Position numbers and translations under genes: made by a program | Shown here: one piece after another, positions 622 to 29,848 of the stretch | How the letters are laid out: each line of letters starts with the position of its first letter | How positions within the stretch are numbered: the first letter of the stretch is position 1 | Notes under the pieces: model-generated | What the model was told of the DNA's origin: nothing | Database searches by the model: none | Seen by the model: the letters and a program-made list of their open reading frames with translations, nothing else | Origin: Candidatus Nanohaloarchaea archaeon | GTDB lineage: Archaea > Nanohalarchaeota > Nanosalinia > Nanosalinales > Nanosalinaceae | Length of the DNA stretch: 64,000 nucleotides | Direction: 5' to 3' | Assembly (NCBI GenBank): GCA_047617745.1 | Contig: JBLGBN010000001.1 | Coordinates: 1-64,000, forward strand

Positions 622-1242
622 ATGGAAAACCCTATCGAATTTCTACAGAAAAGCGCACAAGGACAGCTTGTGGCTTTACTATCACTAGGACTTGTAGTCT
701 CATTCGGCGCAGGAGTAGCCCTTGACGACGGAGTAACACAGGACGAGACAGCCGCTCAGGACTCCAGCCAGTGGGAAGGAGTATACACTGTTGAAGTTGA
801 AAGAGACGGAGAAGTAGTTTACAGGGAAAAAGAACATAACGTACTGACCAACCAGGGACAGAACTGGATCCGGAGCCAGATTTCGGCCAACAACGGAATG
901 GGTAATGACGGCAACGAAGCACAGTACATTTCAGTTGGAAACACGTCAGCCCCTACAGCTACCGACACCGTTTTACCCGGAGAAATCCAAGACTTCAGCC
1001 TCTCACGAACCCAGGGCTCCACAACAGTCTTTGGCGACGGAGAGTTCCAGGTACAGAACACCTTCCAGGCAAGTCTGGGAGAGGACCAGCAGCTGATAGT
1101 CAACACAACAGGACTTAACTACGACAACACGGCAGGAGCAGACACACTGGTTTCAGGAGGAGAATTCCCTGACGCCAACCTGCTTGACGGAGACCAGCTG
1201 ACAGTTACCCACAACGTCACAATCAACGACGGCGGCAACTAA
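622..1242 (+). CDS. secreted/anchored protein resembling phage tail/fibre structural subunits
   Basis: N-terminal hydrophobic segment, then HNVLTNQG..YISVG..APTATDTVL..E..R..GL..F..L.DGDQLTVT..VTI, a pattern I recognise from phage minor tail/fibre proteins. Start moved to ATG 622 based on TATA spacing. Confidence 0.7.
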   Translation: MENPIEFLQKSAQGQLVALLSLGLVVSFGAGVALDDGVTQDETAAQDSSQWEGVYTVEVERDGEVVYREKEHNVLTNQGQNWIRSQISANNGMGNDGNEAQYISVGNTSAPTATDTVLPGEIQDFSLSRTQGSTTVFGDGEFQVQNTFQASLGEDQQLIVNTTGLNYDNTAGADTLVSGGEFPDANLLDGDQLTVTHNVTINDGGN

Positions 1243-1262
1243 AAGCTGAAGTCCTAAAAACC

Positions 1263-1280
1263 TCTTTTTTTCCTTCTATT
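1263..1280 (+). terminator. oligo-T archaeal terminator
   Basis: TCTTTTTTTCCTTCTATT just after the stop at 1242. Confidence 0.5.
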
Positions 1281-1370
1281 ATTCGTATCTATATCTTAGC
1301 TAGCCTGTTTCGACCTCAGTAGTTTCTACACCCTTTTTTAGCAGGCGCGAGAAGTTTATCTAATGGAGAG

Positions 1371-1405
1371 GTAGATAACTATCTACTATGTAGATAGTTA
1401 TCTAT
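1371..1405. promoter_or_regulatory. double palindrome (putative tandem operator or 5'UTR hairpin)
   Basis: GTAGATAACTATCTAC-TAT-GTAGATAGTTATCTAT; the arms are inverted copies and each arm is itself near-palindromic. Confidence 0.6.
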
Positions 1406-1429
1406 TTTCAGCACCGGTGAAAACAGAAG

Positions 1430-4400
1430 GTGCATAGAAAAACACACATACTCAAGGTAGTGCTAGCAGTTTCTTTAGCTCTAGCTATACCTTCTAACGC
1501 CTCCGCTGCCACAGAGACTATCACTGCCTGTGGATCCTCGGCCAACCAGCTTACAATACCCGCCGCTCAGACCATAAACATAACTATAGAAGGAGCAGGA
1601 GGAGCAGGAGGTGATTCAGCATCAGGGGGAGGAGGGGGATTAATCGAACTTGAATATCAGGCCTCAGATGATGAAATCTTAGAGCTGTATGCAGGATGCG
1701 GAGGAGTGAACAGCAACGGGGCAGGAGGAGCAGGATATGTAGCCGGTTCTCCTGGAGAAAATACAGATGGCACAACAGGAGGGGGAGGAGGTTCATCCGC
1801 AGTGCTTGGAGGAAACAACAATAAAATCGCTTCAGCAGGGGGTGGAGGAGGAGCAGGATATGGAGGAGGATTTCTAGGAATTGGTGCCGGAGCAGGAGGA
1901 GCAGGAGGAGGCGAAGGAAATACAGGAGGAGCAGGAGGAACAACCGATACCCCAGCAGGAGGTGACGGTTCTCCCATAATAAACCAGGGAACAGCAGTAA
2001 ATCAGCAAACAGGGGGAGGAGGGGGAGGAGGCGCATCAGGATCCGATGGATCTGACGGCCAGGTCGTAGTTGAATACAATATTCCGCCTACAGTGCGCTC
2101 CAACAAAACCTTCAACGGCACAGATCAGAACAATCTAGTGGAAAAAGAACAGTACGTCAGCTCCGACACGTTAACAGTCAGGAGCAATGTAACAGACCCT
2201 GACAGCGAGCTCGGAGAAATACTTCTTTCCATTAGAGATCCTACAGGAGATCTAACTCTAGACAACGCCTCCATGAGTCAGATAGACACGGTAAATATAG
2301 ACGGAGATTCAGGCGCAACGTTTGAAAGAGATTTCAACTTCCCTTACATCTTTCTGGGAGACTGGAGCTACACTATCTGGGCAAGCGATCAGCCAGGACT
2401 GCTGAACGATAGCCAGGGAAGCTTCGAGATGATAGATCTTACACCTCCAGAAACCAGGAATACTTTCCAGAACAGAACACTGATGACTATCCACAACACA
2501 GTTCTTCTTCAGGCAGAGGGATACGACAACTGGAATCTTTCACATGCTGTACTGGCAACCAACGAAACCGGTGAATGGGAGAACAAAACAGACAGTTACG
2601 GTTCTCCAAAGACGCCTTATACCTTCCAGACCTGGACAACCACAGGTTTCGCCTGGAAAAACAACAGCATGACCGGAAATAAATCTGTTCACTGGCGCGT
2701 CTGGTACAACGACATATCGGGCCAGCACTCTGTAACGGAGACAAACTCTTTCCGGGTCCGTGAGAACTTCAACTGGAAAGGAGTTGAATCTGAGGAAGTA
2801 GGATTCACACGTGAAAGCCCGAGAAGAGCAGCAAATGGAAGAACAATCAAGCAAGCGGTAGATGTCCAGAACATTCACACCAGATTAGTTGACTTGGGGA
2901 GAGTTAAGAACTCGATAATAGATATCAGGCAGGAGGCGGTCCGAAGCCAGGTAATCAAACCTGCGGTAGCGGAATCGATGAGCACAGCTCTAAGAAATGA
3001 TAGACTTTCTGATGGAGCACGGAACTTCATGACCGGTACGGCGTTCAGTAACCCTACAGCCCGGGTAAACAGTATTGGCAGAATCTTCAGCCAGGCAATA
3101 GCAATTGATACCGATTTCACAAGATACTTCACAGGTATGAGAAATCAGATAGAAGAGTACAGCGCAGAGGAAATCTCAGTAAGGCAACAGGATTTAAGCC
3201 GGGCGGCACCCGCCTCAATCATCTTCAACTCAGACATAACCAGAGAAGGAAACATCAACCGTATACTCTACGAAACCTTCACCGGTAACGAAAAAATATA
3301 CAGAAGCTTCACTGGAGACCGGGATCTCAACTCGGACCTGGAAGTTGGACAGACCTCTACCAGATCAGTATTCAGTTCAAGAAGCTTCAGCCAAACCATA
3401 GCCGGAGCAGAGACCGTAGAAAGTCTTTTCACCGGTTCCAGACTGGTTTCAGACCAGATTACATCTTCAGATACAACATTTAGAAGCCTTTCAAACCTTA
3501 GAACAGTAGCTGAATCAGCCGGTTTTACCGAAAACCGTTACACTTCTTCCAATCTGGCTAGACTATTCAGTCAGAGGATTAGCTCAGAACAGGCCGAAAC
3601 CAGGACAGCTCTAAACCTTCGAACATTGACCGAAGAAGTTAGCTCGGAAAACCAGGTAATAAGCGCTACCTCTGTCAGCAGAACAGTTCTGGAAACTACA
3701 GGCTTCCAGCAAAACCTAGTGACAGATAGCGTACTGCAGAGAGTATTTGAAAGCAGTTACAGCCCGGCCCTTAACGAATTGACCTATTTCTCAGGATCAA
3801 GAATAACAGAACAGATAATTGAAGCCGGAAATCTACAGAACCGTGAAACCTCTTCTTTCAGGCTTAACCAGGTTATCACCGGTTTTTCGGCGGATGAAAC
3901 CTCGGTATCAGCATTAGGCAGAATCCTCAACACAGATATACTCCAGACAGCAGAAACAGATAGATCGATTTTCTCAAGCAGAAACATACAGGAAACAGTA
4001 GAAGGACTAGAGAAATCGTATAGAACATCCTATTCACAGAGAGCTGTAACCGACGATTTAAAAGCAACAGATAGCCAGTCCCGGTTTTTAGAATCAGGCA
4101 GATTTATCGCCTCAAATATAGCCTTTGACGCAGTATCTGCACGAACAGCGACCAGCAGCAGATCTTTCAATCAGATCATAAACTACAACCAGATGCTTCT
4201 ATCAACATTTACCGGTGAAAGAAACCTCAACACAGATATAGAGGGAGAAGAAGACCTAGAAAGAAACACATTACAGGCTAGAACCAGAAATAACCTGATC
4301 TCTGGATCCTTCACCGGTTCAAGATCTCTTCTGAGCGCTCGACAGAGATCTCTCGGTATTACCGCTACAGACACTGTTTCAAGAGCTGCAGACACCGCAA

Positions 4401-7400
4401 GAATCGTAGCCGAAGCAACCGGGATACAGGCTGCGGCAGATCAGCAAATATTCAACATTAGACAGGTATCAGATATCTATAGCGGTAACGAAAACATCAA
4501 CACTTTCAATCTGCTGCAGAGAACCGAGAGTCTTTCTACCGGATACCTTGATCGGCAGTCTTCATCTTCTGAAATTTCCCGGCTCCAGACTACAGAGCTC
4601 GCCACAGGCATCAACACCCCTAGAAACATCGATATCCAGAGAATTCTCACCGACGCGTTCATCGCAGCACCAGATCAAACAGGGGCCAGACTACAGGTAA
4701 GAAAGATAATTGAGCAGTTTGGATTCACGGCAGATCCAGAAAGAAATAACCTGTTGAACCAGAGAACTATTTCAAGCAGTTTCAACTCGGCGTTAGAGGT
4801 GTCTATAAACTCGATGGTTTCCAGGCAGGAGGACACCGAACTCGGAATAGCTACCTCATCAGTTAGAGAAAGCCTTAACCTGAGAGCCTTCAGCCAGAGC
4901 ATAAATCCACAGAGCTTCACAGAAGCCGAAAGCCTGCTCGGAAGAACACAGAGTGAGGAAATTGCCTCAGAGGATAATCGATTCTCAACTTCAGATGTTC
5001 GCCGGAGAGTAATCGAAAGCACCTCAGTCGGGTTGATTCCGGCAAGAAATCTGGCTGTAACCAGAACCGAAAATTCTGGAATAGGTTACAGCAGCGTTGA
5101 ACAGCAGCTAACCGAGAGTATCCGAAATCAGATTCTGGCAGTGGCAACCTCGGACAATACACAGCGAACCAGTAGCACAGGCCGGACCGTTGCACAGATC
5201 CTGCCGCTTCAGCAAGCCGCGGATAGATCTCTACTCAGCCAGAGAACAGAAATATCGGTACTGACAGGACAGTTTGCAGAGACAGCGAGCACAAACATGT
5301 TAAGAGCAGTAATAGACTCCATAGGTCTGAACACTGAAACGGCCGCAAGATCCGCAGTTAACAGAGTAGTAGAGAATATAGTTGAGCTAAGCAGCGCGGA
5401 AAATAGAAACCTAGCTCAGCAGAGAGCCTTCAGTTCAGAAATCACTATAGCTGAAAACAGTATCTCGGCGCTGAGTATAAACCGCATGGTTTCAGCCACC
5501 CTTACTGGAGATACCTCTGTAGAGGGAACACCTTCCGCTGGAAGACAGGTCACCGAGATACTGACAGCAGGCACAGTTCCTGAAACTGCGTCAGGCATCT
5601 CCCGTACAACCTCAACAGGTATCCAGAACACAATACTGGGTGCAAGCACAGGACAGCTGCTTCGAAACCAGTTCGCCGAGCTCGGATTTAACAGCGATAC
5701 CAGCAACTCCATGGTTCTTAACCGGTTCATACAGGATGGTATCAGCATTACCGGAGCCTTCAGCCAGTCGGGATCACTTAACAGATTATTCAGCCAGGAG
5801 ACAGGACTAAACTTGGAAGCAACCGGTTCAGGTATGCTTCGGAGGGTGCAATCAACTTCGCTGAATGCTCAGACAGCAACAGAGCTTGGTTCAGATGTTT
5901 CCCGTTCAGTTTTACAGTCTTTCACAGGCACAAGCGAAGCCAGTAACTCGGTACTCGCCAGTAGATCTATTTCCGAAATTCTGGCATCCAGCGCCGGTCT
6001 GGACCGGAGAACAACACAGCAACGTACGGAGAGAACCCGGTTGTCAATCTCAGATAACATAATCTCCACAGGCATTTTCAGCAGAGTATTCTACCAGCGC
6101 GTGCAGCCGAATCTTGAGACTATAACCCGGACCAGAACACCCCGAGTTGTTTCAGATAGTTTATCGCTTAACGCCGACACTGAAGCTGCTCTGAATGTCT
6201 TCCGTGAAGATATACTGAACGTTAATGCCGGGCAGACTCGATCAGTTATCTCAATGCTGAACAGGTTTAACCAGGAAAGCATCTCCACTGAAAACAGCGT
6301 TCAAGTCAGTTCCAGTGTAGCACGTGCCGTCACAGAAACCCTGCTGATGAACTCAGACTCAAGTATTTACTCTCAGACGTTCAGACAGGTAACCGAAAAC
6401 GGAATATTTACAGATCAAACATCAGGCAGCGCAGTCTCAGCCCGGCTCGTCCTTCTGAATGTCGGAGCAGGTATAGATGAGACCGGTTCCGGTTTCTTCA
6501 GCCGGACAGTACAGGAGATGGCATACCTCCAAGATGAAAGAACAGGTTCGCCATCGATCGGCAGATACCTCAGTACAGTCCTGCAGATAGACAACCAGGC
6601 CCAAAGAGAATCTTCATCAGCAAGATCTGTTATCTTCGGTATAGAAAACTCTTTCACAGTATCCGGCTCAGGAAACTTACTAAGAGCAGTTGAGGAGAGC
6701 TTTTCCTCAGATGTAGGAAGCGAAGCTCTATCAAGCCTAAGCAGGAATATACAGCAAGACCTGAACACGGGAGAACAACAGCTCGTAACAACAGGGCTTG
6801 CACGGCTTACCTCCCAGCATATAACATCAGATATAGGCGCTGTTAGAAGTATTAACCTTGACAGAAGACTGGAAGAAACTCTTGGACTAGATAACACACT
6901 GTCAGCAAACAGCTTCCTCGGCAGAAACCTGAATCCGGAAATCCTTGCCACTGAATCCTCCGGAAGACAGCTAACCCTCAACGTGGTTCAGAGCCAACTT
7001 GTCGGACTGGAAAGCGTGCAGACAGGCGGCCGAACCGCACTGAGGGCTATAAGTGAGGAAGTACTTACCACAGAATCCACCGATCGTATAAACCAGGCGG
7101 CGGTAAGAACCGCAGAGCAAACCTTAACAGTTCAAACTCTGATCTCAGCCCAGGACTCTGGACTTAGAACCGTACTTCTTGACATAGAAACAGGTAACTC
7201 GCAGGGTAGAAACACTGTAACCCAGAGACTGCTCCAGACTGGATTCTCCGCAGCAACCGCTTTCAACACCGGGAGTATCCTGGAAAGGGCTATTGGAGCC
7301 AATATTAGATCAACGGCGTCAACTTTATCGGATCTACAGGTTTTCAGAAACCTGCAGCAGGAAATAGTAGCTAATAGCGGTAACAGTCGACAGCTGATGG

Positions 7401-9493
7401 CCGGGAGGTTCCTGGAGACAGAAACCAGTTTACAGGATTCTTTAAGCGGTCAACCGCTGGTTTCAAGACTGGTAGAGGATTACATCCAGACCAGCGACAG
7501 CCAAGACACTTCCCAGATAGCTGAAAGAAGCCTGAATGAAATCGCAGGATACACCGGTACAGTGGATAGATCAGCCGATATTTTCACGTTAATCAACCAG
7601 GGAGTCGGACCTGATATAAACAGCGTGACGAGTTCAAGGATCGGAAGAATATTCGGAACCAGTACAGGAGTGGAAAACCGACTAGCAACTGATTTAAGCC
7701 TTCAGCGGGTTCTTGTGTCCGGACTTGGCTTTGAGGATCAGCAGGAATCGAGCCCGCTGGTCTTCAGAACACTATCCAGTACTTTCAGTTTGGATAATTC
7801 CCCAGCTGCAACGCTGGACATAGAGAGAGGTATAGAGCAGCTACTGAGTCCTGTTACAGAGTCCGGATCCCGGCTCTCAGCAGGTAGAACCATTCTTTCC
7901 GAAATAGGAGCTACAGGATCGGAGAGAACCGGGCTACTCACCTCCAGAGCTACCTCGACAGCAGTAACTTACTCATCCGCCCTCAGCAGTCAGAGATCCG
8001 TACTTGCGCTGGTCTCGGAGAGCTTCCAGACAGGTGTCGACCCAGTTAGGTCTATATCAATCGGTAGAGCAGTAGGAGGTAGTATTGGTATACAGGATTC
8101 AGCTTTCCCTGACTTCAATCTCTTCCAGGTCGTAGTAGACACAGTTGTCGGTGTTGATGATACACCGGATAGAACAGTTTCTATCTCCCGTCAGATTTCC
8201 GAGGACTACGGGTTTGGCTGGTTCTTCGACAGCTTCATCTTCGGCGATGAGCCGCAGATACCTGAAGACCCTGATACAGGAGGCGAAGGTAGCGACGGGT
8301 CAACCGGTGGCGGCTTCCCAGCACCCCCTACAGAACCAGTAGCGCAGCCGGAACTCTCCTTCGCAGGTAACAGACTGACTGTAAAACTCGCTCCGGGAGA
8401 GACATCAACAGCCAGTGCAGAGCTCGAAAACACAGGTGAAGCCGAAGCCGATACCCGGCTTGAAGTAAGACGGATCAACATGGACACAGTCAATGCAATC
8501 CAGCTGCAGCAGACGAACTACACAATTGAAGCAGGCTCAGCAGTCGACCCTGTGATGAATATAACCGCCCCGGCATATCTTGAGGATGGAAATATTTCCA
8601 ACAGAGTACTTGAAAGATCGCTTTACGCCTCCGCCGGGAACTCTGAAGCAAGCATCCCTGTAAATGTTCTGATCGAGTCAGAGGAGAAGCAGTTGCTTGA
8701 TGTGCGGCTTGACCTCGAGGAAAATGAGATTACAGAGGGAGAAAGCGCAGACTACAGCTTTGAGATATTCAACCTAGGTGAAACCGGTAGAGTGGATATA
8801 GAGCTCTTCACCACAGTAACCAACAGCACAGGACATGTTATCCATGAGGAGAAGGAAGAGCTGGCAGTCCAGACCTCTGCTTCAGTTGCGAGAAACCTGG
8901 ATGTAGATCTCCCTCCAGGACAGTACAAGGTGAAGGTGGACGCCAGGTACGGGGATAAGGACGCCTCCTCATTCTCCACCTTGAGAGTTCAGGAGCCGAG
9001 CAGCAACTTTGGAAACGTGGCAGTGGCGCTCGGTATAGTCGGACTGATGATTCTGTCAGCGTTACTGGCAGTACTGGGATACAAGAAAGTAAGACTGCCT
9101 CGCGGTCTGTTTATCCGAGATCGACTGGCAGAGATCAGAGATTACGCCGAAAGCCACGAAATCGACTTCGAAAAACTTGCTAGAAAAGAGGAAGAAGATT
9201 CCGGTTACAGCCATGTTGACTTCAGTAACGATGACGACGATCTTGCAAAGAGAGAGTGGATACCATCTCCGGAAGATAAAGAGGAGTCAGAAAACACAGA
9301 GTCCGAAACATCGAAGAATAAATCTAATTCCAGTCAACACGAGAGATCGGAGGAGAACGATGGAAGACCAACCGTAGATATTTCAGATGTCGAAAAAGGT
9401 GAAACAAGCAGTAAAGATTCAGAGAGCGCTAGTCCAACAGAAGAAACGATAAAGGACATCCATAGAGATCTCAAGGAATCGCTAGAGGACTGA
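1430..9493 (+). CDS. giant membrane-anchored surface protein: signal peptide, Gly-rich domain, Ig-like domains, ~89 x 20-aa repeats, Ig-like domains, TM helix, acidic tail
   Basis: 2687-aa ORF; GGTGA SD before GTG; AxA-type signal peptide; GAGGAGG-rich domain; Arg every 20 aa; C-terminal TM VAVALGIVGLMILSALLAVLGY followed by KK. Confidence 0.9.
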   Translation: MHRKTHILKVVLAVSLALAIPSNASAATETITACGSSANQLTIPAAQTINITIEGAGGAGGDSASGGGGGLIELEYQASDDEILELYAGCGGVNSNGAGGAGYVAGSPGENTDGTTGGGGGSSAVLGGNNNKIASAGGGGGAGYGGGFLGIGAGAGGAGGGEGNTGGAGGTTDTPAGGDGSPIINQGTAVNQQTGGGGGGGASGSDGSDGQVVVEYNIPPTVRSNKTFNGTDQNNLVEKEQYVSSDTLTVRSNVTDPDSELGEILLSIRDPTGDLTLDNASMSQIDTVNIDGDSGATFERDFNFPYIFLGDWSYTIWASDQPGLLNDSQGSFEMIDLTPPETRNTFQNRTLMTIHNTVLLQAEGYDNWNLSHAVLATNETGEWENKTDSYGSPKTPYTFQTWTTTGFAWKNNSMTGNKSVHWRVWYNDISGQHSVTETNSFRVRENFNWKGVESEEVGFTRESPRRAANGRTIKQAVDVQNIHTRLVDLGRVKNSIIDIRQEAVRSQVIKPAVAESMSTALRNDRLSDGARNFMTGTAFSNPTARVNSIGRIFSQAIAIDTDFTRYFTGMRNQIEEYSAEEISVRQQDLSRAAPASIIFNSDITREGNINRILYETFTGNEKIYRSFTGDRDLNSDLEVGQTSTRSVFSSRSFSQTIAGAETVESLFTGSRLVSDQITSSDTTFRSLSNLRTVAESAGFTENRYTSSNLARLFSQRISSEQAETRTALNLRTLTEEVSSENQVISATSVSRTVLETTGFQQNLVTDSVLQRVFESSYSPALNELTYFSGSRITEQIIEAGNLQNRETSSFRLNQVITGFSADETSVSALGRILNTDILQTAETDRSIFSSRNIQETVEGLEKSYRTSYSQRAVTDDLKATDSQSRFLESGRFIASNIAFDAVSARTATSSRSFNQIINYNQMLLSTFTGERNLNTDIEGEEDLERNTLQARTRNNLISGSFTGSRSLLSARQRSLGITATDTVSRAADTARIVAEATGIQAAADQQIFNIRQVSDIYSGNENINTFNLLQRTESLSTGYLDRQSSSSEISRLQTTELATGINTPRNIDIQRILTDAFIAAPDQTGARLQVRKIIEQFGFTADPERNNLLNQRTISSSFNSALEVSINSMVSRQEDTELGIATSSVRESLNLRAFSQSINPQSFTEAESLLGRTQSEEIASEDNRFSTSDVRRRVIESTSVGLIPARNLAVTRTENSGIGYSSVEQQLTESIRNQILAVATSDNTQRTSSTGRTVAQILPLQQAADRSLLSQRTEISVLTGQFAETASTNMLRAVIDSIGLNTETAARSAVNRVVENIVELSSAENRNLAQQRAFSSEITIAENSISALSINRMVSATLTGDTSVEGTPSAGRQVTEILTAGTVPETASGISRTTSTGIQNTILGASTGQLLRNQFAELGFNSDTSNSMVLNRFIQDGISITGAFSQSGSLNRLFSQETGLNLEATGSGMLRRVQSTSLNAQTATELGSDVSRSVLQSFTGTSEASNSVLASRSISEILASSAGLDRRTTQQRTERTRLSISDNIISTGIFSRVFYQRVQPNLETITRTRTPRVVSDSLSLNADTEAALNVFREDILNVNAGQTRSVISMLNRFNQESISTENSVQVSSSVARAVTETLLMNSDSSIYSQTFRQVTENGIFTDQTSGSAVSARLVLLNVGAGIDETGSGFFSRTVQEMAYLQDERTGSPSIGRYLSTVLQIDNQAQRESSSARSVIFGIENSFTVSGSGNLLRAVEESFSSDVGSEALSSLSRNIQQDLNTGEQQLVTTGLARLTSQHITSDIGAVRSINLDRRLEETLGLDNTLSANSFLGRNLNPEILATESSGRQLTLNVVQSQLVGLESVQTGGRTALRAISEEVLTTESTDRINQAAVRTAEQTLTVQTLISAQDSGLRTVLLDIETGNSQGRNTVTQRLLQTGFSAATAFNTGSILERAIGANIRSTASTLSDLQVFRNLQQEIVANSGNSRQLMAGRFLETETSLQDSLSGQPLVSRLVEDYIQTSDSQDTSQIAERSLNEIAGYTGTVDRSADIFTLINQGVGPDINSVTSSRIGRIFGTSTGVENRLATDLSLQRVLVSGLGFEDQQESSPLVFRTLSSTFSLDNSPAATLDIERGIEQLLSPVTESGSRLSAGRTILSEIGATGSERTGLLTSRATSTAVTYSSALSSQRSVLALVSESFQTGVDPVRSISIGRAVGGSIGIQDSAFPDFNLFQVVVDTVVGVDDTPDRTVSISRQISEDYGFGWFFDSFIFGDEPQIPEDPDTGGEGSDGSTGGGFPAPPTEPVAQPELSFAGNRLTVKLAPGETSTASAELENTGEAEADTRLEVRRINMDTVNAIQLQQTNYTIEAGSAVDPVMNITAPAYLEDGNISNRVLERSLYASAGNSEASIPVNVLIESEEKQLLDVRLDLEENEITEGESADYSFEIFNLGETGRVDIELFTTVTNSTGHVIHEEKEELAVQTSASVARNLDVDLPPGQYKVKVDARYGDKDASSFSTLRVQEPSSNFGNVAVALGIVGLMILSALLAVLGYKKVRLPRGLFIRDRLAEIRDYAESHEIDFEKLARKEEEDSGYSHVDFSNDDDDLAKREWIPSPEDKEESENTESETSKNKSNSSQHERSEENDGRPTVDISDVEKGETSSKDSESASPTEETIKDIHRDLKESLED
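2840..8200 (+). repeat. degenerate 60-nt / 20-aa tandem coding repeat, ~89 units
   Basis: e.g. RTVAESAGFTENRYTSSNLA/RLFSQRISSEQAETRTALNL/RTLTEEVSSENQVISATSVS; first Arg codon at 2840, last at 8189 (5349 nt, ~89 periods). Confidence 0.85.
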
Positions 9494-14579: not shown

Positions 14580-15371
14580 ATGAAGAAGATACTAGCGCTA
14601 ACGATAATAGGATTTTTGATGACAGGTATAGCCTCAGCTCAAGCACAGGATGTACCTGCACCTGGGATAACGCCAGACAACCCGTTGTACACTTTTGAGA
14701 AAATATCGGAGAGACTAGCCCTTGGTGTCGCACAAGCACCATTGATCGGCAGCGAAGAGCTTGAGGCGAAAGTTAGAGCTAACCAGGCAGCAGAAACATT
14801 GGCGGAAGCAAGGGCTATGGCCGCAGAAAACAAGTCGCAACACGTGGAAAAACTGATGCATAGGTACTCTGAAAACATGAACAAATCGACAGAGATAGCG
14901 AGCAGTTCCAATAACTCGGAACTGAAAAACCGGCTGAAAAATGTTTCAAACAACCAGTTAAAGACTCTTGAGGAAGTCGAAAGAAAAGTCCCAGAACCGG
15001 CCAGAAAAGGGATCCAGAACGCAATAGAGAACAGTCAGAGAAACCAGCATGCTCTAGAAAGATCGGCTGGGAGAGGATCGCAGAACATCCCTGACCCAGG
15101 AAACAAACCAAAAACTCCCGGATCTAAGAAGAAACCAGAAAACACCTTAAATCCCAACAAGTCACAAAGCCGAGGATCTCAGGAAACAGAGGCAGAACGT
15201 GAGAGACAAAAAGACGTTATAACCGGTCAGGTAACCGGACAGCCAGCAGCACAGAACCCAGCGGCATCTGCTGAAAAAGATGTAGACACAGGTCGTTACC
15301 AGAACAGCGAAAAACCCTCAAAAAGAGAAGAAAGCCGGCAAAAAGACGATCAGAGAGACAACCAACCGTAA
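14580..15371 (+). CDS. secreted protein with DUF5667-like domain
   Basis: signal peptide; PGITPDNPLYTFEKISERLAL...LAEA motif; GGTGA SD. Confidence 0.75.
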   Translation: MKKILALTIIGFLMTGIASAQAQDVPAPGITPDNPLYTFEKISERLALGVAQAPLIGSEELEAKVRANQAAETLAEARAMAAENKSQHVEKLMHRYSENMNKSTEIASSSNNSELKNRLKNVSNNQLKTLEEVERKVPEPARKGIQNAIENSQRNQHALERSAGRGSQNIPDPGNKPKTPGSKKKPENTLNPNKSQSRGSQETEAERERQKDVITGQVTGQPAAQNPAASAEKDVDTGRYQNSEKPSKREESRQKDDQRDNQP

Positions 15372-15411: not shown

Positions 15412-15801
15412 ATGGCTGTTCCATTTCCTGAAGCACAGATAGAAGCACTGATCTACATGGTGCTAGGATCACTTCTCACATTAGTCACAGTCCTAACAAT
15501 GTACATAAGAAAGCTTCACAGAAGAATGGAGGACCCTGACATAGAGGCAGAAGAGCAGAATAGACCAGATCTTAGAACAGATAATATTGGATTATCAAAG
15601 AAGGCTGAAGACATCCTTGAAAGGATTCTGGAAGAGCCGGAACTCCAGAGCGATCTACCACAGGAGCTAAAAGTTTCCAAAGCTACCGTAAGCAACGGTA
15701 TATCCGAATTAAAGGAACGTAGTTTAATTAAAAGGAAGAAGAAAGCTAATACATACCTTATAGAGCCAGATATAGATAAACTTGAAGAAGAACAGAGATA
15801 G
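15412..15801 (+). CDS. membrane-anchored winged-HTH transcriptional regulator
   Basis: N-terminal TM; C-terminal QSDLPQELKVSKATVSNGISELKERSLIKRKK. Confidence 0.8.
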   Translation: MAVPFPEAQIEALIYMVLGSLLTLVTVLTMYIRKLHRRMEDPDIEAEEQNRPDLRTDNIGLSKKAEDILERILEEPELQSDLPQELKVSKATVSNGISELKERSLIKRKKKANTYLIEPDIDKLEEEQR

Positions 15802-19175: not shown

Positions 19176-19225
19176 CAGCAAAGCATGCGGCGTTGGTCTT
19201 ATTAACCAGCGAAAACAATCTTGAG

Positions 19226-21157
19226 ATGTATATGTCATTTCTAAAATCGGTCAAAGATGCTTTCTCGGAGAACGATGAGGGAGACGGTAGAGACCTAACT
19301 TTCGATGTAGAAGATGAAGGACTCGACTTCACACTCAGCGACAAGCAGGATATCAAGATAACCAGCAAGATCGATAAACTGGCAGACGTCGATGTGAAGT
19401 ATCCGTTGATTAAACCTTTCGCCTACGCCCATGTCAAATGGAATGAAGATGAGAAGGAGATTATCTACAGAGTAATAGAGCCTGAAATGGACGAAGAAGC
19501 GGAAGAGCTCCTGAGCGTAGTGAAGGAAAACCTATCCGAGAAAATTGATATCTCTCTAAGCTCTATGGGCGGCAGAGAAAAAATTATCGATTATCTTGAA
19601 GATCAGATCAACGATCTGATGATAGAGCTTGGTATAAGCATGACTGAGGAGCAGCACAAAAAGATACTATACTACGTTTACAGGGACTTCGTGGGGCTTG
19701 GGAAAGTTGAGCCTTTGATGCACGACCCGTATATAGAAGACCTGGGCTGTGATGGAACAGGAACACCTATCTTCGCAGTCCACTCCGAATTTGGATCGGT
19801 AAAATCAAGCGTGGTCTACGATGATCAGGAAGATCTTGAGAACCTTGTAATCAAGCTAGCGGAGAGATGCGGCCGCTACGTTTCGTACGCAAATCCGTTG
19901 CTGGACGGCGCACTTCCAGACGGTTCAAGAGTTAACGCTTCACTGACAGAGGATGTCACCGCTCACGGACCAACCTTCTCCATCAGAAAGTTCCAGGAGA
20001 CACCTTTCTCAGCGGTTGACATGATGGATTTAGGAACTGCAAACGCAGAAATCATGGCATACATGTGGATTCTCCAGCAGTACCAGCAGTCAATCCTGAT
20101 CTGCGGAGGTACATCTACCGGAAAAACCAGCTTCCTGAATGCAACGGTGTCATTCATACCTCCAGAAGACAAGATTGTTTCAATTGAGGATACGAGGGAG
20201 CTTCAGCTTCCGCACGAGAACTGGATTCCATCGGTTACAAGAGAGATGTTTGGAACCTCAAGTCAGGGAGACGTCGACATGGACCAGCTCCTCAAGGAGT
20301 CGTTCCGTCAGAACCCAGATTATGTTGTGGTCGGTGAGGTTAGAGGAGAGGAGGCTTCAGTCCTGTTCCAGGGTATGTCCTCGGGGCATCCTTCAATCGG
20401 AACTATGCACGCATCCTCACCTAACGCCGTGGTCAAAAGACTGACCACCCCGCCAATTTCGCTATCCCCTGCCCTGATAGAGGCTATAGATGTCATGGTT
20501 ATAATGACACACGCAAAAGGGGTAGAGAAATCTGCCAGAAGAGTGAAAAACGTGCACGAGCTGCAGAAAGTAGTCGGAGAATCCGCCTCCGCAAGAACCA
20601 ACCAGGCATTCTCATGGACTGCCACCGATGACTCATTCAACAAAAGAGGGGAACCCTATCTTTTCGATCAGATAAGCAAAGACTACGGTGTCAGCAAGCA
20701 GAAACTGCTGGATGAGCTGGAGAAAAGAACTCAGTTACTCGAATGGCTGCAGGAAAAGGGGGTAAAAGATTTCGACAAGGTCTCCAGTATCGTAGCAGAA
20801 TATTACAAGAACAAAGAAGAGATCCTAAAAATGATAAACTCGGAGGCAGACGAGTATAAACTTGAAGATGTTATCGAAGCCGAATCCAAGGTTGATCTTT
20901 CACGACCTGACCAACTGGATAAGGCGATGAAAAACAGTAAAGAGGAGTCGCTCGAAGACCAGATAAATGATATTGACGGTGATGCAGATGTTGAAATCAA
21001 AAAGGAGTCAGAAAATAACCCTGTGGCCGAACTTGAGAAAAAGCTGAAATCGGAGAGGGAGAAAATCGAGAAAGTCAGATCCCGAACACCCGAGCAGAGA
21101 GATCAAGATCCCTTTGAAAAATCCGAAAACGTAGAAGAGGATCCCTTCGAGGCATAA
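19226..21157 (+). CDS. type IV pilus / type II-IV secretion ATPase (PilB/FlaI family)
   Basis: Walker A GGTSTGKT, SIEDTRE, RQNPDYVVVGEVRG, TMHA. Confidence 0.93.
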   Translation: MYMSFLKSVKDAFSENDEGDGRDLTFDVEDEGLDFTLSDKQDIKITSKIDKLADVDVKYPLIKPFAYAHVKWNEDEKEIIYRVIEPEMDEEAEELLSVVKENLSEKIDISLSSMGGREKIIDYLEDQINDLMIELGISMTEEQHKKILYYVYRDFVGLGKVEPLMHDPYIEDLGCDGTGTPIFAVHSEFGSVKSSVVYDDQEDLENLVIKLAERCGRYVSYANPLLDGALPDGSRVNASLTEDVTAHGPTFSIRKFQETPFSAVDMMDLGTANAEIMAYMWILQQYQQSILICGGTSTGKTSFLNATVSFIPPEDKIVSIEDTRELQLPHENWIPSVTREMFGTSSQGDVDMDQLLKESFRQNPDYVVVGEVRGEEASVLFQGMSSGHPSIGTMHASSPNAVVKRLTTPPISLSPALIEAIDVMVIMTHAKGVEKSARRVKNVHELQKVVGESASARTNQAFSWTATDDSFNKRGEPYLFDQISKDYGVSKQKLLDELEKRTQLLEWLQEKGVKDFDKVSSIVAEYYKNKEEILKMINSEADEYKLEDVIEAESKVDLSRPDQLDKAMKNSKEESLEDQINDIDGDADVEIKKESENNPVAELEKKLKSEREKIEKVRSRTPEQRDQDPFEKSENVEEDPFEA

Positions 21158-21160
21158 CCG

Positions 21161-21799
21161 ATGAAACGAATAAAAACAGGTATTCACAACGTAGACCGAC
21201 TTCTAGGGGGAGGAATACCGGAGAAGGAAACACTCCTTGTAAAGGGTGAGCCGGGGGCAGGTAAGACAAATCTGGGCCTCGAATTTCTATACAGAGGCGC
21301 CATAAATGGTCAGAACGGTCTTTATATCTCATTTCAGGATACAGAGGATGACGTTTTGCGTGCAAACACCTTTGAATGGGATTTTAAGGGGCAGGTCGAC
21401 CAGGGCAGGATCAATATACGCAAAATGGATCCCTACAGATACGAACAGGTGCCTGACATGATAAGAGGTATGATAAAAGAGAATAACGCGGATAGAGTTG
21501 TTGTAGATCCTATAACAGATCTAGATCTTTACATTGAATCTCGAAAGGATATCAGGAAGAACCTCCTTGCGATAAAGAGGGAAATCAGCAATCTTGGCGC
21601 AACCTCCCTTCTACTGGCCGAAAACGAGGAGGCAACAGAGATAGAGGATGAAATAGCTGACGGAATAATAAATATGGAGGTCGTAAGGGAGCAAGGCCGG
21701 GTTAAGAGAGAAATTTATATCAAAAAACTGAGAGGATCAGATTACAACCATAGCGTCCATAACTATATTTTCAACAGCGACGGCCTGAAGGTCCAATGA
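21161..21799 (+). CDS. KaiC/RAD55-family ATPase
   Basis: IKTGI..DRLLGGGIP, GEPGAGKT, KLRGS. Confidence 0.9.
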   Translation: MKRIKTGIHNVDRLLGGGIPEKETLLVKGEPGAGKTNLGLEFLYRGAINGQNGLYISFQDTEDDVLRANTFEWDFKGQVDQGRINIRKMDPYRYEQVPDMIRGMIKENNADRVVVDPITDLDLYIESRKDIRKNLLAIKREISNLGATSLLLAENEEATEIEDEIADGIINMEVVREQGRVKREIYIKKLRGSDYNHSVHNYIFNSDGLKVQ

Positions 21800-22719
21800 G
21801 CCACAATCCATTTGACACCAGTTTTCTAGAAAGAATCAAGCAGGCGGCAAAGACAGATAATCTTGACGCAGCCGCCAATGCAGTATTCGGTCCAACAGTA
21901 GATAAATATGGAGAAGAGTTCGAGGACCTGAAAGAGGATCTACAGAAAGCAGATATAGATGTTCTATACAGGACCTATGTCTCCAAAATGTTCCTGTACA
22001 GCACTTTCATGTTCATACTCGGGCTAATAGCAGGGGTCAGTATCATAGCAAGCGGCGGACTGTCAGTATTTGAAGCGGTAAGGTATCTTTTCGGAGTCCC
22101 TCTAGCATTCTCACTTGTAACGTTTGGTTTCATGTACCTTTATCCATCCCAAAAGGCCAAAAGACGTAAGAAGAATATAGATGATAACCTGCCGTTTGCC
22201 CTCAATCATCTGGGAGCTATCGCCACCTCTGGAATCCCGCCTAAATCAATGTTCGAACTCCTTGATACGTTTGACGAATACGAGGGTATCTCAGACGAGG
22301 CAGGGGAGATATCCAGAAGAGTAAACGTTTTCGGTGAGGACCTTACAACCGCTCTCAAACAGGTAGCTGATAAATCGCCGAGCGAGGACTGGGCAGAGGT
22401 ACTTTACGGGATTATCTCAACAGTCGAAACAGGGGGAGATCTCAAATCCTACCTGCAGGAGAAATCTGACGAAGCACTTTTCGATTACAACCAGCAGAGG
22501 CAGAGAGAAATCCAAAAACTCAGCACCTACGCCTCGTTCTACACAGCTATACTAATCGCCGCGCCAGTCTTCCTCGTTGTCGTCCTTGCCGTTATGAACC
22601 TGCTTGGAGGCACAATTGGCGGGTTTGCAATCCAAGAGTTGATGTGGCTCGGCGTCCATATAATCATCCCTACGATAAACGCTTTATTCGTCGCCTTCCT
22701 GGCGTTAACGGTGGATTAA
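21796..22719 (+). CDS. pilus platform membrane protein (TadC/PilC, T2SS F family)
   Basis: IDDNLPFAL..A.SG; GEDLTTAL; GGDL..YL; multiple TMs. Confidence 0.9.
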   Translation: MSHNPFDTSFLERIKQAAKTDNLDAAANAVFGPTVDKYGEEFEDLKEDLQKADIDVLYRTYVSKMFLYSTFMFILGLIAGVSIIASGGLSVFEAVRYLFGVPLAFSLVTFGFMYLYPSQKAKRRKKNIDDNLPFALNHLGAIATSGIPPKSMFELLDTFDEYEGISDEAGEISRRVNVFGEDLTTALKQVADKSPSEDWAEVLYGIISTVETGGDLKSYLQEKSDEALFDYNQQRQREIQKLSTYASFYTAILIAAPVFLVVVLAVMNLLGGTIGGFAIQELMWLGVHIIIPTINALFVAFLALTVD

Positions 22720-23928
22720 ATGAACACAAAAATGCTTAAACTGAAAATCAAGAATTACTGGAGAAAGAACGAGAAGCTGATACTGGCAATCATCGGCGCC
22801 TTTATCCTCGGAGTTGCTATAGCCGGTCTTAACTACGTAAACCACCAGAACTCTCTGGTAAAATTCCAGAGTTCTCAACCACAGATAATTGACAGTCAGA
22901 ACCAGGCAAGCTTCAGCTTCGAAGTGGAGAATCCTTCGGTAGCTCAGACCCAGATGGAGGTCAGATTTGAAGGCGTAGCAGAAGGTAATCCTGTAGCAGT
23001 CTCAATTAATGGAGAAAGATTCACCCGGATAGAGGCTAACTCGGATCTGGTAAATATACCCTCTGAACAACTTCAAGAGGAAAACGAAGTAAACATCACC
23101 AATACAGGTCTAGGGATCGACCAGCAGAGACTGATATATGCAAGGGTAACATCCACCACGAACCTTCAGGAGCTTATGTTCGTCATCCTTAATCTTGTGG
23201 CGCTTCTCTTGATCGCCGCTCCTGTCATGTACATAAAGTACGAGCAGTACATGGCTCGGAAAAAGATGCAGGAGAAATTCCCCGAGTTCCTGCGCGACGT
23301 AGTGGAAGGTACCAGGGCCGGTATGTCCCTGCCTCAGGCCATTAAAAACACTGAAACCGGGAGTTACGGACCGCTAGATCAGAAGATTGAGAAGATGAAC
23401 GCCCAGCTTGACTGGGGAATACCGTTCGAAAAAGTCCTGAGAAACTTCGGTGAAGACACAGGATCACCGGTAATCAGGAGAAGCGTTGACACCATAATAC
23501 AGGCCTATTCATCAGGAGGAAATATCCAGGATGTACTTGAATCAGTAGGAGAGAATATCAGGACAATCAAAAAGCTGAAAGAAAAGAGAGAATCACAGCT
23601 TTACGGCGAAATGATAACCGGTTACGTAGTATTCTTCATATTTATAGGCATACTTGTGGCTCTAACAGAATTCCTGCTCCCTAACCTAGCCTCAGCCCAG
23701 CAGTCGCTCGGAGGGAGCGGGAGTTTCTCGGTACTTGGAGGCGGAGGCTCCAACCTGCAGGAAAACATTTCACTTTACAACGAATGGTTTAGAAGGCTGG
23801 TCTACATACAGGCATTCTTCTCAGGCCTGATAATCGGTAAACTCTCAGAAGGCGAGCTAAAAGCCGGATTCAAACATATGGCAATCCTGTTCGCCGCAGG
23901 ATACCTGGCAGTCACCTTCTTCCTCTAG
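22720..23928 (+). CDS. pilus platform membrane protein (TadB/C-like) with an inserted beta-rich domain
   Basis: FPEFLRD...AGMSLPQA, WGIPF, QAFFSGLIIGKLSEG. Confidence 0.88.
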   Translation: MNTKMLKLKIKNYWRKNEKLILAIIGAFILGVAIAGLNYVNHQNSLVKFQSSQPQIIDSQNQASFSFEVENPSVAQTQMEVRFEGVAEGNPVAVSINGERFTRIEANSDLVNIPSEQLQEENEVNITNTGLGIDQQRLIYARVTSTTNLQELMFVILNLVALLLIAAPVMYIKYEQYMARKKMQEKFPEFLRDVVEGTRAGMSLPQAIKNTETGSYGPLDQKIEKMNAQLDWGIPFEKVLRNFGEDTGSPVIRRSVDTIIQAYSSGGNIQDVLESVGENIRTIKKLKEKRESQLYGEMITGYVVFFIFIGILVALTEFLLPNLASAQQSLGGSGSFSVLGGGGSNLQENISLYNEWFRRLVYIQAFFSGLIIGKLSEGELKAGFKHMAILFAAGYLAVTFFL

Positions 23929-23966
23929 AACAAACCAATTTAAACAAGCAGAAGAGAGGTTTACCT

Positions 23967-24392
23967 ATGAATCGGAAAGGAGTTTCACCAATTATTGCAT
24001 CAGTACTTCTGTTGGCGGTAAGTCTGGCAGTTGTGAGTATATTCTCAGGCTGGGCGCCAGAACTAGCACAGGATGTAACTCAGGAAACAACTGACAACAC
24101 ATTCGAAACAATATCATGTAACGAAGCCTCAGTTGAGATCCGATCCGCATACTTTGGCGATAACGATGTGACACTCTCAGTTAGAAACACAGGAACTGAA
24201 GATCTCAATAATCTATCGCTCGTAGCCTATGCCGATAACCAAACAATTCTAAATGATACCGAAGCAAGCATACCAAGAGGACAGCTATCTGAAGAAACAA
24301 TCGAATCTGTAGGAGTAGAACCAGCGTATGTAGAAGCGCTCTCACAGCAATGTGGTTCCGTAACCTACAGAACCGACGATATCAGTACGTAG
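23967..24392 (+). CDS. archaeal type IV pilin
   Basis: class III signal RKG|VSPIIASVLLLAVSL. Confidence 0.9.
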   Translation: MNRKGVSPIIASVLLLAVSLAVVSIFSGWAPELAQDVTQETTDNTFETISCNEASVEIRSAYFGDNDVTLSVRNTGTEDLNNLSLVAYADNQTILNDTEASIPRGQLSEETIESVGVEPAYVEALSQQCGSVTYRTDDIST

Positions 24393-24396
24393 AGCG

Positions 24397-24825
24397 ATGA
24401 AAGGTTTATCCCAGGTTATCACCTCGGCGCTTATCCTTGCGGTCGGAATCTCGGTTGCCGGAGTCTACGCCAACTGGGCTCCTGACTTCGCAGAAAGAGT
24501 CGCGGAAGATACAGCAGACCAGCAGAACCAAGACTTAAGATGTAGAAACGCAGGCATAAGAATAAATGGCGCAGTTTATGATCTTACAGGCAATTTTACC
24601 GAGGTCGAAATAACTAATATAGGTACGATAGATCTTAGAGACGACCTTACTGTTACCTCAGTCAATCAGTCAAGAGTTATAGGAAATAAGGAAATAAACC
24701 AGATAGAGGTAGAATCCACACGTATAGTACAGGTAGAAAGTGATGAAAAACCTGAATCAGTAGTTATAACAAGCAGCGGCTGTCCAGATCTTGAAGCTTC
24801 AATCCAGAATATAGAAGAGAAATAG
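24397..24825 (+). CDS. archaeal type IV pilin
   Basis: class III signal KG|LSQVITSALILAVGI. Confidence 0.88.
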   Translation: MKGLSQVITSALILAVGISVAGVYANWAPDFAERVAEDTADQQNQDLRCRNAGIRINGAVYDLTGNFTEVEITNIGTIDLRDDLTVTSVNQSRVIGNKEINQIEVESTRIVQVESDEKPESVVITSSGCPDLEASIQNIEEK

Positions 24826-26850: not shown

Positions 26851-26854
26851 AAAA

Positions 26855-27130
26855 TCAGTTGGTGGAATTAGAGCCGCCACCGCCTCCATCACCTCCTCCG
26901 TCAATTATGCCTACAGACTCCGCATTAGAAGAATTAGAACTATTTTCCGCTGTAGTTGAGTAATTTCTTAACTTATCAATGGCGTAATCTGAGCTTGAAT
27001 CTATAGAGCTACATTTAGATTCAAGAATTCCTGTCTCAAATTTAAAACAACTTGAAACAGCTACAACTAAGGTTAGCAAAACAAGAACCATTAAAGAGAT
27101 ATTACGCGCGGAATTAAAATCAATAAGCAT
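26855..27130 (-). CDS. small secreted/anchored protein with Gly/Ser tail
   Basis: ATG overlaps the end of the upstream gene; hydrophobic N-terminus. Confidence 0.55.
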   Translation of the reverse strand: MLIDFNSARNISLMVLVLLTLVVAVSSCFKFETGILESKCSSIDSSSDYAIDKLRNYSTTAENSSNSSNAESVGIIDGGGDGGGGGSNSTN

Positions 27131-29768: not shown

Positions 29769-29848
29769 ATCGTAAAATTAGTCGTTTTAAATTAAATAAT
29801 TACTCAAAAACTAGGCTCTTTTTATTGTACAAAAACGAATTTGAAGCC

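Follow-up and report, generated by a model that had tools for sequence, protein, structure and literature searches.

The stretch considered here, called the window, comprises 64,000 nucleotides of contig JBLGBN010000001.1 (positions 1 to 64,000, forward strand; GenBank assembly GCA_047617745.1) from a Candidatus (Ca.) Nanohaloarchaea archaeon, whose genome assembly (G000) amounts to 834 kb in 34 contigs and is 88.6% complete. Near its start, a gene for an exported protein of 206 amino acids (aa) is followed on the same strand by a gene for a 2687-aa membrane-anchored protein that carries 90 degenerate repeats of about 20 aa (Table 1). The two genes are proposed here to encode a cellular form of the rope-and-bead fibers of phages, in which small subunits (beads) are lined up on an extended strand (the rope). 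In keeping with that proposal, the small protein is referred to as the bead, the large one as the giant, and its repeat region as the rope.

The bead is encoded by a single copy in the window genome. Translation from the ATG at 622 gives 206 aa, and lengths of 204-207 aa are common to 12 of the 20 relatives listed. Judged from its sequence, the TATA-like element ahead of the gene would be the bead promoter, and its spacing to the ATG suggests a leaderless transcript; transcription would end at the terminator-like run of seven T behind the stop codon, beyond which a second T run follows. The perfect inverted repeat before the GTG of the giant is possibly an operator or promoter element, and it may be the site of a regulator that decouples rope expression from bead expression. 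A secreted 206-aa protein with its own TATA box and oligo-T terminator had been described in the initial annotation of this DNA, and the open reading frame (ORF), the TATA-like element and the run of seven T were all found. Two N-x-T motifs of the bead (NTT at residues 161-163, in VNTTGLN, and NVT at residues 198-200, in THNVTI) are invariant or near-invariant across 21 close relatives and may be glycosylation sites or structural residues. Two acidic residues of the bead, E121 and D191, are near-invariant in the same alignment, and in the proposed fiber they would be the partners of the rope Arg. A reading of the bead as a type IV pilin was also considered and was dropped, as Pilin_N gave no match and the residue ahead of the hydrophobic stretch is not a conserved K/R.

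The translation of the giant contains a signal peptide, a glycine-rich N-terminus, one transmembrane (TM) helix and an acidic tail, all of which had been recognized before, and the whole protein matched no family in Pfam or NCBIfam. Its head is probably of the ALK/LTK-GRD or Gly_rich_2 type, as indicated by sub-threshold matches: the alignment with PF21722 (Gly_rich_2) has E=1.2 and 9.5 bits (cut-off 24.3) and covers positions 5-225 of the 226 in the profile, two distant relatives (P0025 and P0026) bear PF21722, and the Atlas features give a score of 0.82 to the PF12810/PF21722 clusters, which serves as a lead only. From the earlier suggestion of a glycine-rich, receptor-binding tip, the glycine-rich part is retained and the tip remains such a lead. 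Immunoglobulin (Ig)-like domains had been suggested as well; this claim was not sustained, since the membrane-proximal region gave only weak, sub-threshold matches (CARDB, E=0.0067, 17.1 bits for a cut-off of 22.7; choice_anch_T, E=0.023). The same kind of aromatic motif that ends the repeat array of the giant also closes the arrays of three other genomes (G067, G015 and G056).

Table 1. Features of the bead and giant genes, of other parts of the window, and of related loci mentioned in the text. Strand is given as + or -, with a point for a symmetrical element; residues are those of the encoded protein.
Feature	Position	Strand	Details
TATA-like element ATATATTTAAA	587..597	+	~30 nt before ATG 622; putative promoter, from sequence
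Bead gene	622..1242 (ORF 583/622-1242)	+	206-aa exported protein from ATG at 622
Bead, hydrophobic segment			Residues 1-45; signal peptide or signal anchor
Bead, core			Residues ~48-206; beta-sandwich with one helix
T7 run	1265..1271	+	23 nt past bead stop (1240-1242); terminator-like, putative termination
T6 run	1334-1339		Second T run beyond bead stop
Perfect inverted repeat AGATAACTATCTAC-tat-GTAGATAGTTATCT	1373..1403	.	14+14 bp, 3-nt spacer, 27 nt upstream of the GTG of the giant
Giant gene	1430-9493	+	2687 aa, GTG start
Giant, signal peptide	1430..1507	+	Residues 1-26, ending ...SNASA before ATE; cleavage predicted from translation
Giant, Gly-rich head domain	1517..2089	+	Residues ~30-220
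Giant, sequon-rich beta domain	2090..2809	+	Residues 221-460, between head and repeats; no family match
Giant, rope repeats	2810..8215	+	Residues 461-2262, 90 units of ~20 aa
Giant, end-of-array aromatic motif GFGWFFDSFIFG, then acidic and Gly-rich linker	8210..8329	+	
Giant, membrane-proximal beta domains	8330..9016	+	Residues ~2301-2529, possibly CARDB/Ig-like
Giant, single TM helix	9017..9082	+	Residues 2530-2551, then KKVRLPRG
Giant, acidic cytoplasmic tail	9083..9493	+	136 aa (24 E, 17 D, 19 S) and stop codon
DUF5667 protein	14580-15371		263 aa; E 2.8e-15
Winged-helix regulator-like ORF	15412-15801		Follows the DUF5667 gene
Archaeal type IV pilus-like locus	19193-24825		~10 kb downstream
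Sequon-depleted large ORF	25432-26904	-	0 sequons, 6.8 expected
Sequon-depleted large ORF	27123-29777	-	5 sequons, 18.1 expected
Sequon-depleted large ORF, same genome	G000 C2:21269-25801	-	2 sequons, 12.0 expected
Second conserved giant, other loci	L010:19412-19900; L011:11179-19998; L028:6879-11186; L064:14288-16390		
GP4 gp79	L034:10948-11925 (MH638294)	-	325 aa, directly after gp80
G022 giant, two pieces	L012 (G022:C15:1-3810); L067 (G022:C2:2-4690)	-; +	~2800 aa, broken inside repeats by assembly

The repeat region is defined by its period. Across residues 451-2250, the mean BLOSUM62 self-score is -0.01 at a lag of 20 residues, compared with -0.62 at lag 21 and -0.66 at lag 19, and it climbs to 0.08 at lag 40 and 0.15 at lag 60. 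Segmentation by dynamic programming divided the region into its 90 units, 68 of which are exactly 20 aa long; the other 22, with 18 (6 units), 19 (4), 21 (6) or 22 aa (6), largely compensate each other, so that the net phase drift is only +2 residues over 1802. The consensus is x4-R-S-x2-h-x-R-x-h-x-[EQ]-x-h-[GS]-h-x (h, hydrophobic). Of the 66 clean rows, 63 have the Arg of column 11 and 32 that of column 5; columns 13 and 17 are hydrophobic, and column 15 is E/Q. Spacings between Arg residues peak at 6 (32 pairs), 14 (34), 20 (94) and 40 (96), with at most 15 pairs at neighboring spacings, and the region has 153 Arg vs 7 Lys. These values agree with the ~89 repeats, the 20-aa period and the Arg at +14 that had been noted from the sequence at the outset. 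Compared with its closest relative (P0024), the giant is 93.7% identical in the head, 62.8% in the C-terminal part and 40.7% in the repeats, which have thus diverged much faster than the head; yet the 20-aa period and the anchor residues persist. The bead itself shares 87.4% identity with P0005, a protein probably encoded on the P0024 contig. Residues 461-700 were modeled with AlphaFold2 (AF2) from alignment A3, which consists of 27 in-register, non-overlapping repeat tiles from four genomes. The mean predicted local distance difference test (pLDDT) was 35.1 and the predicted template modeling score (pTM) 0.27, and the model showed one long strand per repeat and no solenoid. Because A3 is shallow, this result fails to support an autonomous fold and goes no further.

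The bead belongs to the Gp80 bead superfamily, both by its fold and by a transitive profile link. In the AF2 model, residues 48-206 reach pLDDT values of 88-95 in most blocks (residues 1-47, <50) and form the N-terminal helix and open beta-sandwich of the Gp80-like fold. Foldseek against the PDB returned a single match at E<=0.001, to one chain (953 residues) in the HFTV1 tail model 9h4p, as well as phage fiber and whisker chains with probabilities of 0.96-0.97 (GP4, 8jou_a; Bas63, 9mt4_K; Sf14, 9c39_K). With VIA-align, the bead scored 10.5 against residues 382-512 of 9h4p_BD, 8.6 against GP4 gp80 (8jou_a; 120 of 136 residues aligned), 6.8 against both A511 gp105 and the phi812 baseplate arm, 6.5 against the Bas63 whisker and 6.4 against the Sf14 neck chain. 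Moreover, 58 viral models of BFVD matched at E<=0.001, several of them named tail fiber, and haloarchaeal tailed viruses and lipothrixviruses were included.

Profile searches were based on A1, a 21-row alignment of the bead and its close relatives, and on A4, a more diverse bead-family alignment. Against 1.84 billion representatives, the A1 profile found 834 proteins at E<=0.001 and 257 at E<=1e-10; among the 150 matches listed, nearly all are 136-268 aa long and most align from the N-terminal hydrophobic segment on. In PHROGs, the bead matches phrog_5417 at E=3e-4, and among 60 diverse family members, 34 match phrog_5417 (best 6e-22), four match phrog_4176 'tail fiber protein', and five match Pfam PF23140 'Podophage GP4 fiber I protein gp80' at E<=0.01. 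One of these, P0052, is found by the A1 profile at 5.5e-21 and matches PF23140 with 38 bits (cut-off 27; E 2.4e-9; positions 21-121 of 128), while P0059, P0060, P0065 and P0135 reach 16.8-23.7 bits, below the 27-bit cut-off. The A4 hidden Markov model (HMM) also matches genes of phage tail modules in CV-1-33 (9.7e-28), BcepGomr (gp18, 2e-15) and HHTV-1 (gene 39, 3.5e-13). When phage records were searched with tblastn, the window bead had no match and its distant family member P0060 matched 15 records; a scan of viral_contigs with A1 found no relative, and a search of PDB sequences with A4 and A3 gave 0 matches. The earlier view that the small protein resembles phage tail and fiber subunits is borne out by the fold matches and the PF23140 link.

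Bead and rope tend to occur in the same genomes. Among 70 Nanohaloarchaeota genomes, the bead profile (E<=1e-5) was found in 10 and the rope-repeat profile (E<=1e-3) in 10. Both genes are present in eight (G000, G002, G003, G022, G051, G054, G066 and G067), the bead alone in two (G013 and G045, with the bead gene at a contig end in both), the rope alone in two (G015 and G056), and neither in 58. The association gives a Fisher p of 2e-7 by genome, where related genomes are not independent, and of 6e-4 by genus (5 with both, 2 and 1 with a single gene, 24 with neither). The pairing assumed at the outset thus appears in eight genomes, four having only one of the genes. Within the window genome, the rope profile matches this giant only. 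The bead gene precedes the giant in tandem in G000, G002, G003 and G022, and the two are divergent in G066 and G067; in G054, the bead is followed by a 1908-aa and then a 1938-aa gene, and the 20-aa period is found in the 1938-aa gene only. The ropes have ~135 repeats in the congener G002 (3574 aa), ~98 in P0024, 90 in the window giant and ~16-20 in other genera (G066, G067, G015 and G056), and the Arg anchors, the aromatic motif at the array end and the Gly/acidic linker are kept in all of them and in G022. The two pieces of the G022 giant, which are ORFs on C15 and C2, have identical residues where the first ends and the second begins, and the G003 giant is likewise split, into frames of 1130 and 1473 aa. 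A second conserved giant, with the N-terminus ...AAAFSCD.G.L....C.IT, lies beside or near these genes in G002, G003, G066 and G015; it measures at least 2940 aa in G003 and has no 20-aa period.

The same pair is also found in a different archaeal phylum. Relatives of P0052 occur in six loci of Ca. Nitrosocaldus and related organisms, and in two of them (L068 and L070), the bead homolog is directly followed by a gene for a secreted protein of 989 or 1091 aa, whose residues ~250-720 consist of 20-aa repeats; the L068 protein has nine near-identical copies of EPVLASDTLSRLLSTPRSVL. The spacing of their anchors matches that of the window repeats, with R, R at +6, a hydrophobic residue at +8, E at +10 and a hydrophobic residue at +12 (R-x5-R-x-h-x-E). 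When the nanohaloarchaeal rope HMM was run over 1254 ORFs of 31 loci, it matched six ORFs only, all of them beside or within ~1.3 kb of bead homologs (L116, E 4.4e-13; L068, E 2.9e-12; L071, E 1.2e-8; L070, E 1e-5; L073, E 7e-5; L072, E 1.4e-3). In a wider sample of Thermoproteota, a bead homolog was detected in 29 of 301 genomes, and 12 of 20 neighborhoods have a giant of at least 866 aa; the commonest strong period of these giants is lag 20 (20 windows of sequence, with 8 more at lag 40 and 4 at lag 60). A role in host contact by a DPANN symbiont had been proposed in the initial annotation. Because the same pair is present in Ca. Nitrosocaldus genomes, a symbiosis-specific role is unsupported.

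A further property of the rope is the exclusion of N-glycosylation sequons (N-x-S/T). In the 1802 aa of the repeat region, with 107 Asn and 24.7% Ser+Thr, 0 sequons were observed vs 26.1 expected; the minimum in 2000 composition shuffles was 13, and a column-preserving shuffle of residues 461-1100 gave an expectation of 10.4 vs 0 observed. Sequons are absent from all 20 repeat columns, and the control motifs Q-x-S/T, D-x-S/T and S/T-x-N occur 30, 22 and 32 times. Heads are sequon-enriched (12 vs 6.3 expected in residues 27-460 of the giant, and 14 vs 6.4, 18 vs 10.0 and 17 vs 7.8). The repeat regions of other long ropes have 5 sequons vs 40.8 expected (G002), 2 vs 14.8 and 1 vs 19.9 (first and second piece of G022) and 0 in 1960 aa (P0024); the short ropes and the Nitrosocaldus ropes have no significant depletion, the test being of little power there. 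The window genome overall has 731 sequons for 694 expected, its other giants are enriched about twofold (88 vs 43.6, 58 vs 23.8 and 34 vs 17.9), and an STT3/AglB oligosaccharyltransferase gene is present. A strand threaded through bead grooves along its full length cannot carry glycans, so a rope of this kind would be sequon-free, and the exclusion together with the divergence of the repeats can be read as signs of an enclosed, loosely constrained strand. A sequon-free rope beside a sequon-rich head would also offer a simple sequence signature for finding more ropes. Three further large ORFs of this genome, two in the window and one on contig C2, are sequon-depleted as well (Table 1), and the two in the window have no match in Pfam.

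Rope-and-bead fibers were reportedly first seen in phages by cryo-electron microscopy in 2023, and the GP4 fiber I structure (PDB 8JOU) is said to be that of Zheng et al. in J Mol Biol 2023. In the deposited models, GP4 gp80 (8jou_a) makes up 10 chains of 8JOU, and gp81 is a 12-copy chain of 8JOV. Two reports describe solved cases with 2 to 11 bead dimers (PMC13730344; PMC12609058). The Ralstonia podophage GP4 has five dimers on a separately encoded rope protein (PMC13730344; on bead and rope as separate genes, also PMC12609058). In the Pseudomonas podophage A1002, the beads are gp40 (147 aa) and gp41 (171 aa), whose structures resemble those of GP4 gp80 and VP1 gp11; their dimers are arranged in tandem on the extended 'fiber-dock' rope of the nozzle protein gp39; 11 dimers follow each other along ~300 A, each with an augmented beta-sheet to the rope, and the first ~30 residues of gp41 are absent from the map and maybe cleaved (PMC13730344). 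In the myophage Bas63, whisker dimers wrap the rope domain of the collar 'such as beads on a string', each open bead sandwich being completed by the rope (PMC12609058).

These fibers resemble the proposed one to different degrees. GP4 fiber I has bead and rope in separate genes like the window (PMC13730344; PMC12609058), and its bead gene adjoins that of a protein with a 20-aa period, gp79. This protein has about eleven rows of the form G-[SR]-I-[DE]-[IL]-x-G-x-G, and its 10/20-aa period (z=5.1 and 5.2) was reached in 0 of 1000 shuffles. Both gp79 and a gene designated 'gp61' are absent from PDB sequences, and gp79 is a candidate for the published rope. No 20-aa signal was found in genes that neighbor other phage bead homologs (BcepGomr gp17 and gp19; HHTV-1 genes 37, 38 and 40; CV-1-33 genes 40 and 41). 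Unlike the window system, GP4 fiber I has five dimers rather than 90 repeats and is a virion part on an Ig-like collar rather than a cellular protein with signal peptide, TM helix and cytoplasmic tail; the window bead, unlike gp80, has an additional segment for export at its N-terminus and a beta-hairpin (residues 50-72). The A1002 report describes a rope that, as in the giant, is a domain of a larger multi-domain protein; this rope ends in an Ig-like domain, for which the giant has a possible counterpart in its membrane-proximal region. Also described are many tandem dimers and a possibly cleaved N-terminus of ~30 residues in one bead type, as proposed for the window fiber; however, A1002 has 11 dimers on ~300 A vs up to 90 sites and two bead genes vs one, and its fiber is wrapped around the tail, whereas the giant is anchored in the cell membrane at one end (PMC13730344). 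In the described collar-whisker systems of Bas63 and Sf14, by contrast, each rope bears two dimers and is an N-terminal extension of an Ig-like collar that decorates the virion neck (PMC12609058). Among cellular proteins, the SPEARE-type giants of Nanohaloarchaeota are characterized as proteins of 8,880-9,409 aa with Ig/fibronectin arrays and a VirB4/TraG-like ATPase domain; they share with the window giant the phylum and a membrane-anchored ectodomain and are proposed to act in host interaction, but the window giant has 2687 aa and 20-aa strand repeats and matches none of the SPEARE families (PMC10266531).

Altogether, the explanation to which we incline is that the two genes encode a cellular, membrane-anchored rope-and-bead (chain-like) fiber. 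The giant would be exported by the Sec pathway and held by its C-terminal TM helix. Its 90 twenty-residue repeats would not fold alone; each would lend a short beta-strand (R-x-h-x-[EQ]-x-h-x-h) to the open beta-sandwich of one copy of the 206-aa Gp80-superfamily protein and so complete it. The bead copies would bind as dimers, by analogy with the beads of GP4, Bas63 and A1002 on their ropes, presumably after cleavage of the bead signal. The product would be a beaded rod with its length written in the number of repeats and with the glycine-rich, sequon-rich head at the far end, where it may serve adhesion. Scaled from A1002 (11 dimers in ~300 A), the fiber would measure ~120 nm with one bead per repeat and ~245 nm with one dimer per repeat. 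Indirect support for docking comes from co-occurrence, from the pair in a second phylum, from the lack of a confident repeat fold and from sequon exclusion. A complex prediction with four bead cores and four repeats (score 0.00, mark 0.32; the fold of the partner itself is uncertain) counts neither for nor against binding. The initial annotation had already proposed that phage-derived subunits dock onto a template strand; this part gains from the precedent of solved phage fibers, the relatedness of the bead and the pairing of the genes, whereas the host-contact role attached to it is unsupported.

Several observations weigh against this interpretation. The window bead matches 0 Pfam families at E<=1 and none in NCBIfam; with A4 and A1 as queries, hhalign assigned the lone gp80 sequence of GP4 probabilities of 0.4% and 0.3%, and the A4 HMM had no match to gp80 at E<=1e-3, so the tie to solved beads consists of the fold and one transitive profile step. 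GP4 and the window are without direct sequence similarity in the bead or in the rope; for the latter, gp79 was compared, a candidate rope that the rope HMM did not match. Rope-type giants are present in G015 and G056 (79% and 81% complete), where no bead was found in the genome, nor in the 4-9 kb on each side of the rope genes in G015 and on contig C5 of G056, nor in 2.7 kb on one side on contig C75. In G051, bead and rope are not adjacent, the rope being on two short contigs. Among the giants close to bead homologs in Thermoproteota, periods of 18, 28-32 and 47 are seen in addition to 20 aa; beyond Nanohaloarchaeota and Nitrosocaldus, the link between the bead and a 20-aa rope is therefore only a tendency. 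Sequon avoidance and fast divergence would equally fit a tightly packed homo-oligomer. Finally, the bead keeps its N-terminal hydrophobic segment; without cleavage there, beads would stay fixed to the membrane and be unable to coat a long rod.

In a rival reading, which we consider unlikely, the repeats fold by themselves into a beta-solenoid or beta-helix rod of one 20-residue coil each (~43 nm for 90 coils), with the small protein as an accessory such as a lectin, base, cap or assembly factor. Alternating hydrophobic positions (7, 9, 13, 17 and 19) and Gly/Ser-rich turn positions (10 and 18) fit a strand-turn-strand coil, and rope-type giants in the two genomes where no bead was found would come as no surprise. 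Giant repeat adhesins with a C-terminal anchor are common, and beta-helical adhesins of the FHA and AIDA-I/Ag43 type, with their 19-20-residue repeats, share with the giant the long array of ~20-residue repeats, the surface anchor and the distinct head. Compared with these adhesins, however, the giant has no confident solenoid prediction, no Pfam match, a conserved Arg/Glu pair on the hydrophobic face, total sequon exclusion and a linked bead gene. The long unpaired strands of the AF2 model are a weak objection to the solenoid since the alignment is shallow; the Arg and Glu/Gln residues are on the same face as the core hydrophobic positions, and a solenoid would expose about half of its residues, yet all 20 columns are sequon-free while the head and other giants are sequon-rich. 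Such a rod also leaves the Gp80-type bead gene beside the repeats in two phyla unexplained.

It is improbable that the giant is a homotrimeric shaft like those of phage fibers (a triple beta-helix or beta-spiral) and that the small protein is its adaptor or assembly chaperone. Small genes beside phage fiber genes are often of these kinds, prediction of a monomer would fail for an obligate trimer, and burial within a trimer could also select against glycans. But three C-terminal TM anchors per fiber and repeats that are 41% identical between close strains would be unusual for interdigitated trimers. Nor does the work of a chaperone or adaptor call for a docking-type repeat conserved along with it, whereas the anchor motif is retained next to the bead in another phylum. 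A variant of the rope-and-bead fiber, to which we give the least credence, holds that beads clamp the rope but stay tethered to the membrane by an uncleaved N-terminal helix, so that the giant lies along the surface as a beaded belt or lattice. It would account for the hydrophobic N-terminal segment in nearly all close relatives (A1), for most distant matches aligning from query residue ~10-20, and for the mere ~12 residues between this segment and the folded core. Export needs a hydrophobic N-terminus anyway, however, and small residues stand before the polar stretch (...GAGVA before LDD) as in cleavable signals; in A1002, likewise, the bead gp41 has its first ~30 residues absent from the map and maybe cleaved (PMC13730344).

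The setting of the pair appears cellular rather than viral. The 20 neighboring ORFs scanned between 74 and 32212 matched no viral family at E<=0.001 and gave cellular families or none, which is in line with the earlier statement that no capsid, terminase or integrase gene is nearby, and a provirus reading was rejected on this basis. Neither does the giant look like a virion part, as it has a signal peptide, a TM helix and a cytoplasmic tail, and no relative in viral_contigs was found with A1. Farther downstream, a gene for a DUF5667 protein is followed by a winged-helix regulator-like ORF. A separate filament system is encoded by the archaeal type IV pilus-like locus, which contains a PilB-type ATPase (T2SSE, PilB3_C), a KaiC-like ATPase, two T2SSF proteins and a protein with an archaeal pilin N-terminus.

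Rope-and-bead fibers are known from phages, and a cellular, membrane-anchored form would be new; in the literature searched on chain-like or rope fibers in archaea and on nanohaloarchaeal giant surface proteins, no cellular version was found. More broadly, and with less assurance than the fiber itself, archaea may possess, in addition to archaella/type IV pili and donor-strand pili, a third type of surface filament, namely a ruler-encoded rope in which one membrane-anchored polypeptide with 16 to ~135 docking repeats, kept free of N-glycans for threading, is covered with tens to hundreds of Gp80-type beads. Such a module would be common to tailed viruses and archaea, either of which may have invented it, and within archaea it would extend over two phyla or more (Nanohaloarchaeota, and Thermoproteota with the Nitrosocaldus lineage and others). 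If true, this would be a new class of archaeal cell appendage, membrane-anchored and with 90-135 sites, a natural protein 'ruler' in which repeat count sets filament length in the 100-nm range, and evidence that structural modules have been exchanged between viruses and archaeal cell envelopes. Nanohaloarchaea live attached to haloarchaeal hosts, and for them the fiber would be a candidate long-reach contact organelle; since the pair is also found in Ca. Nitrosocaldus, its primary role may be more general.

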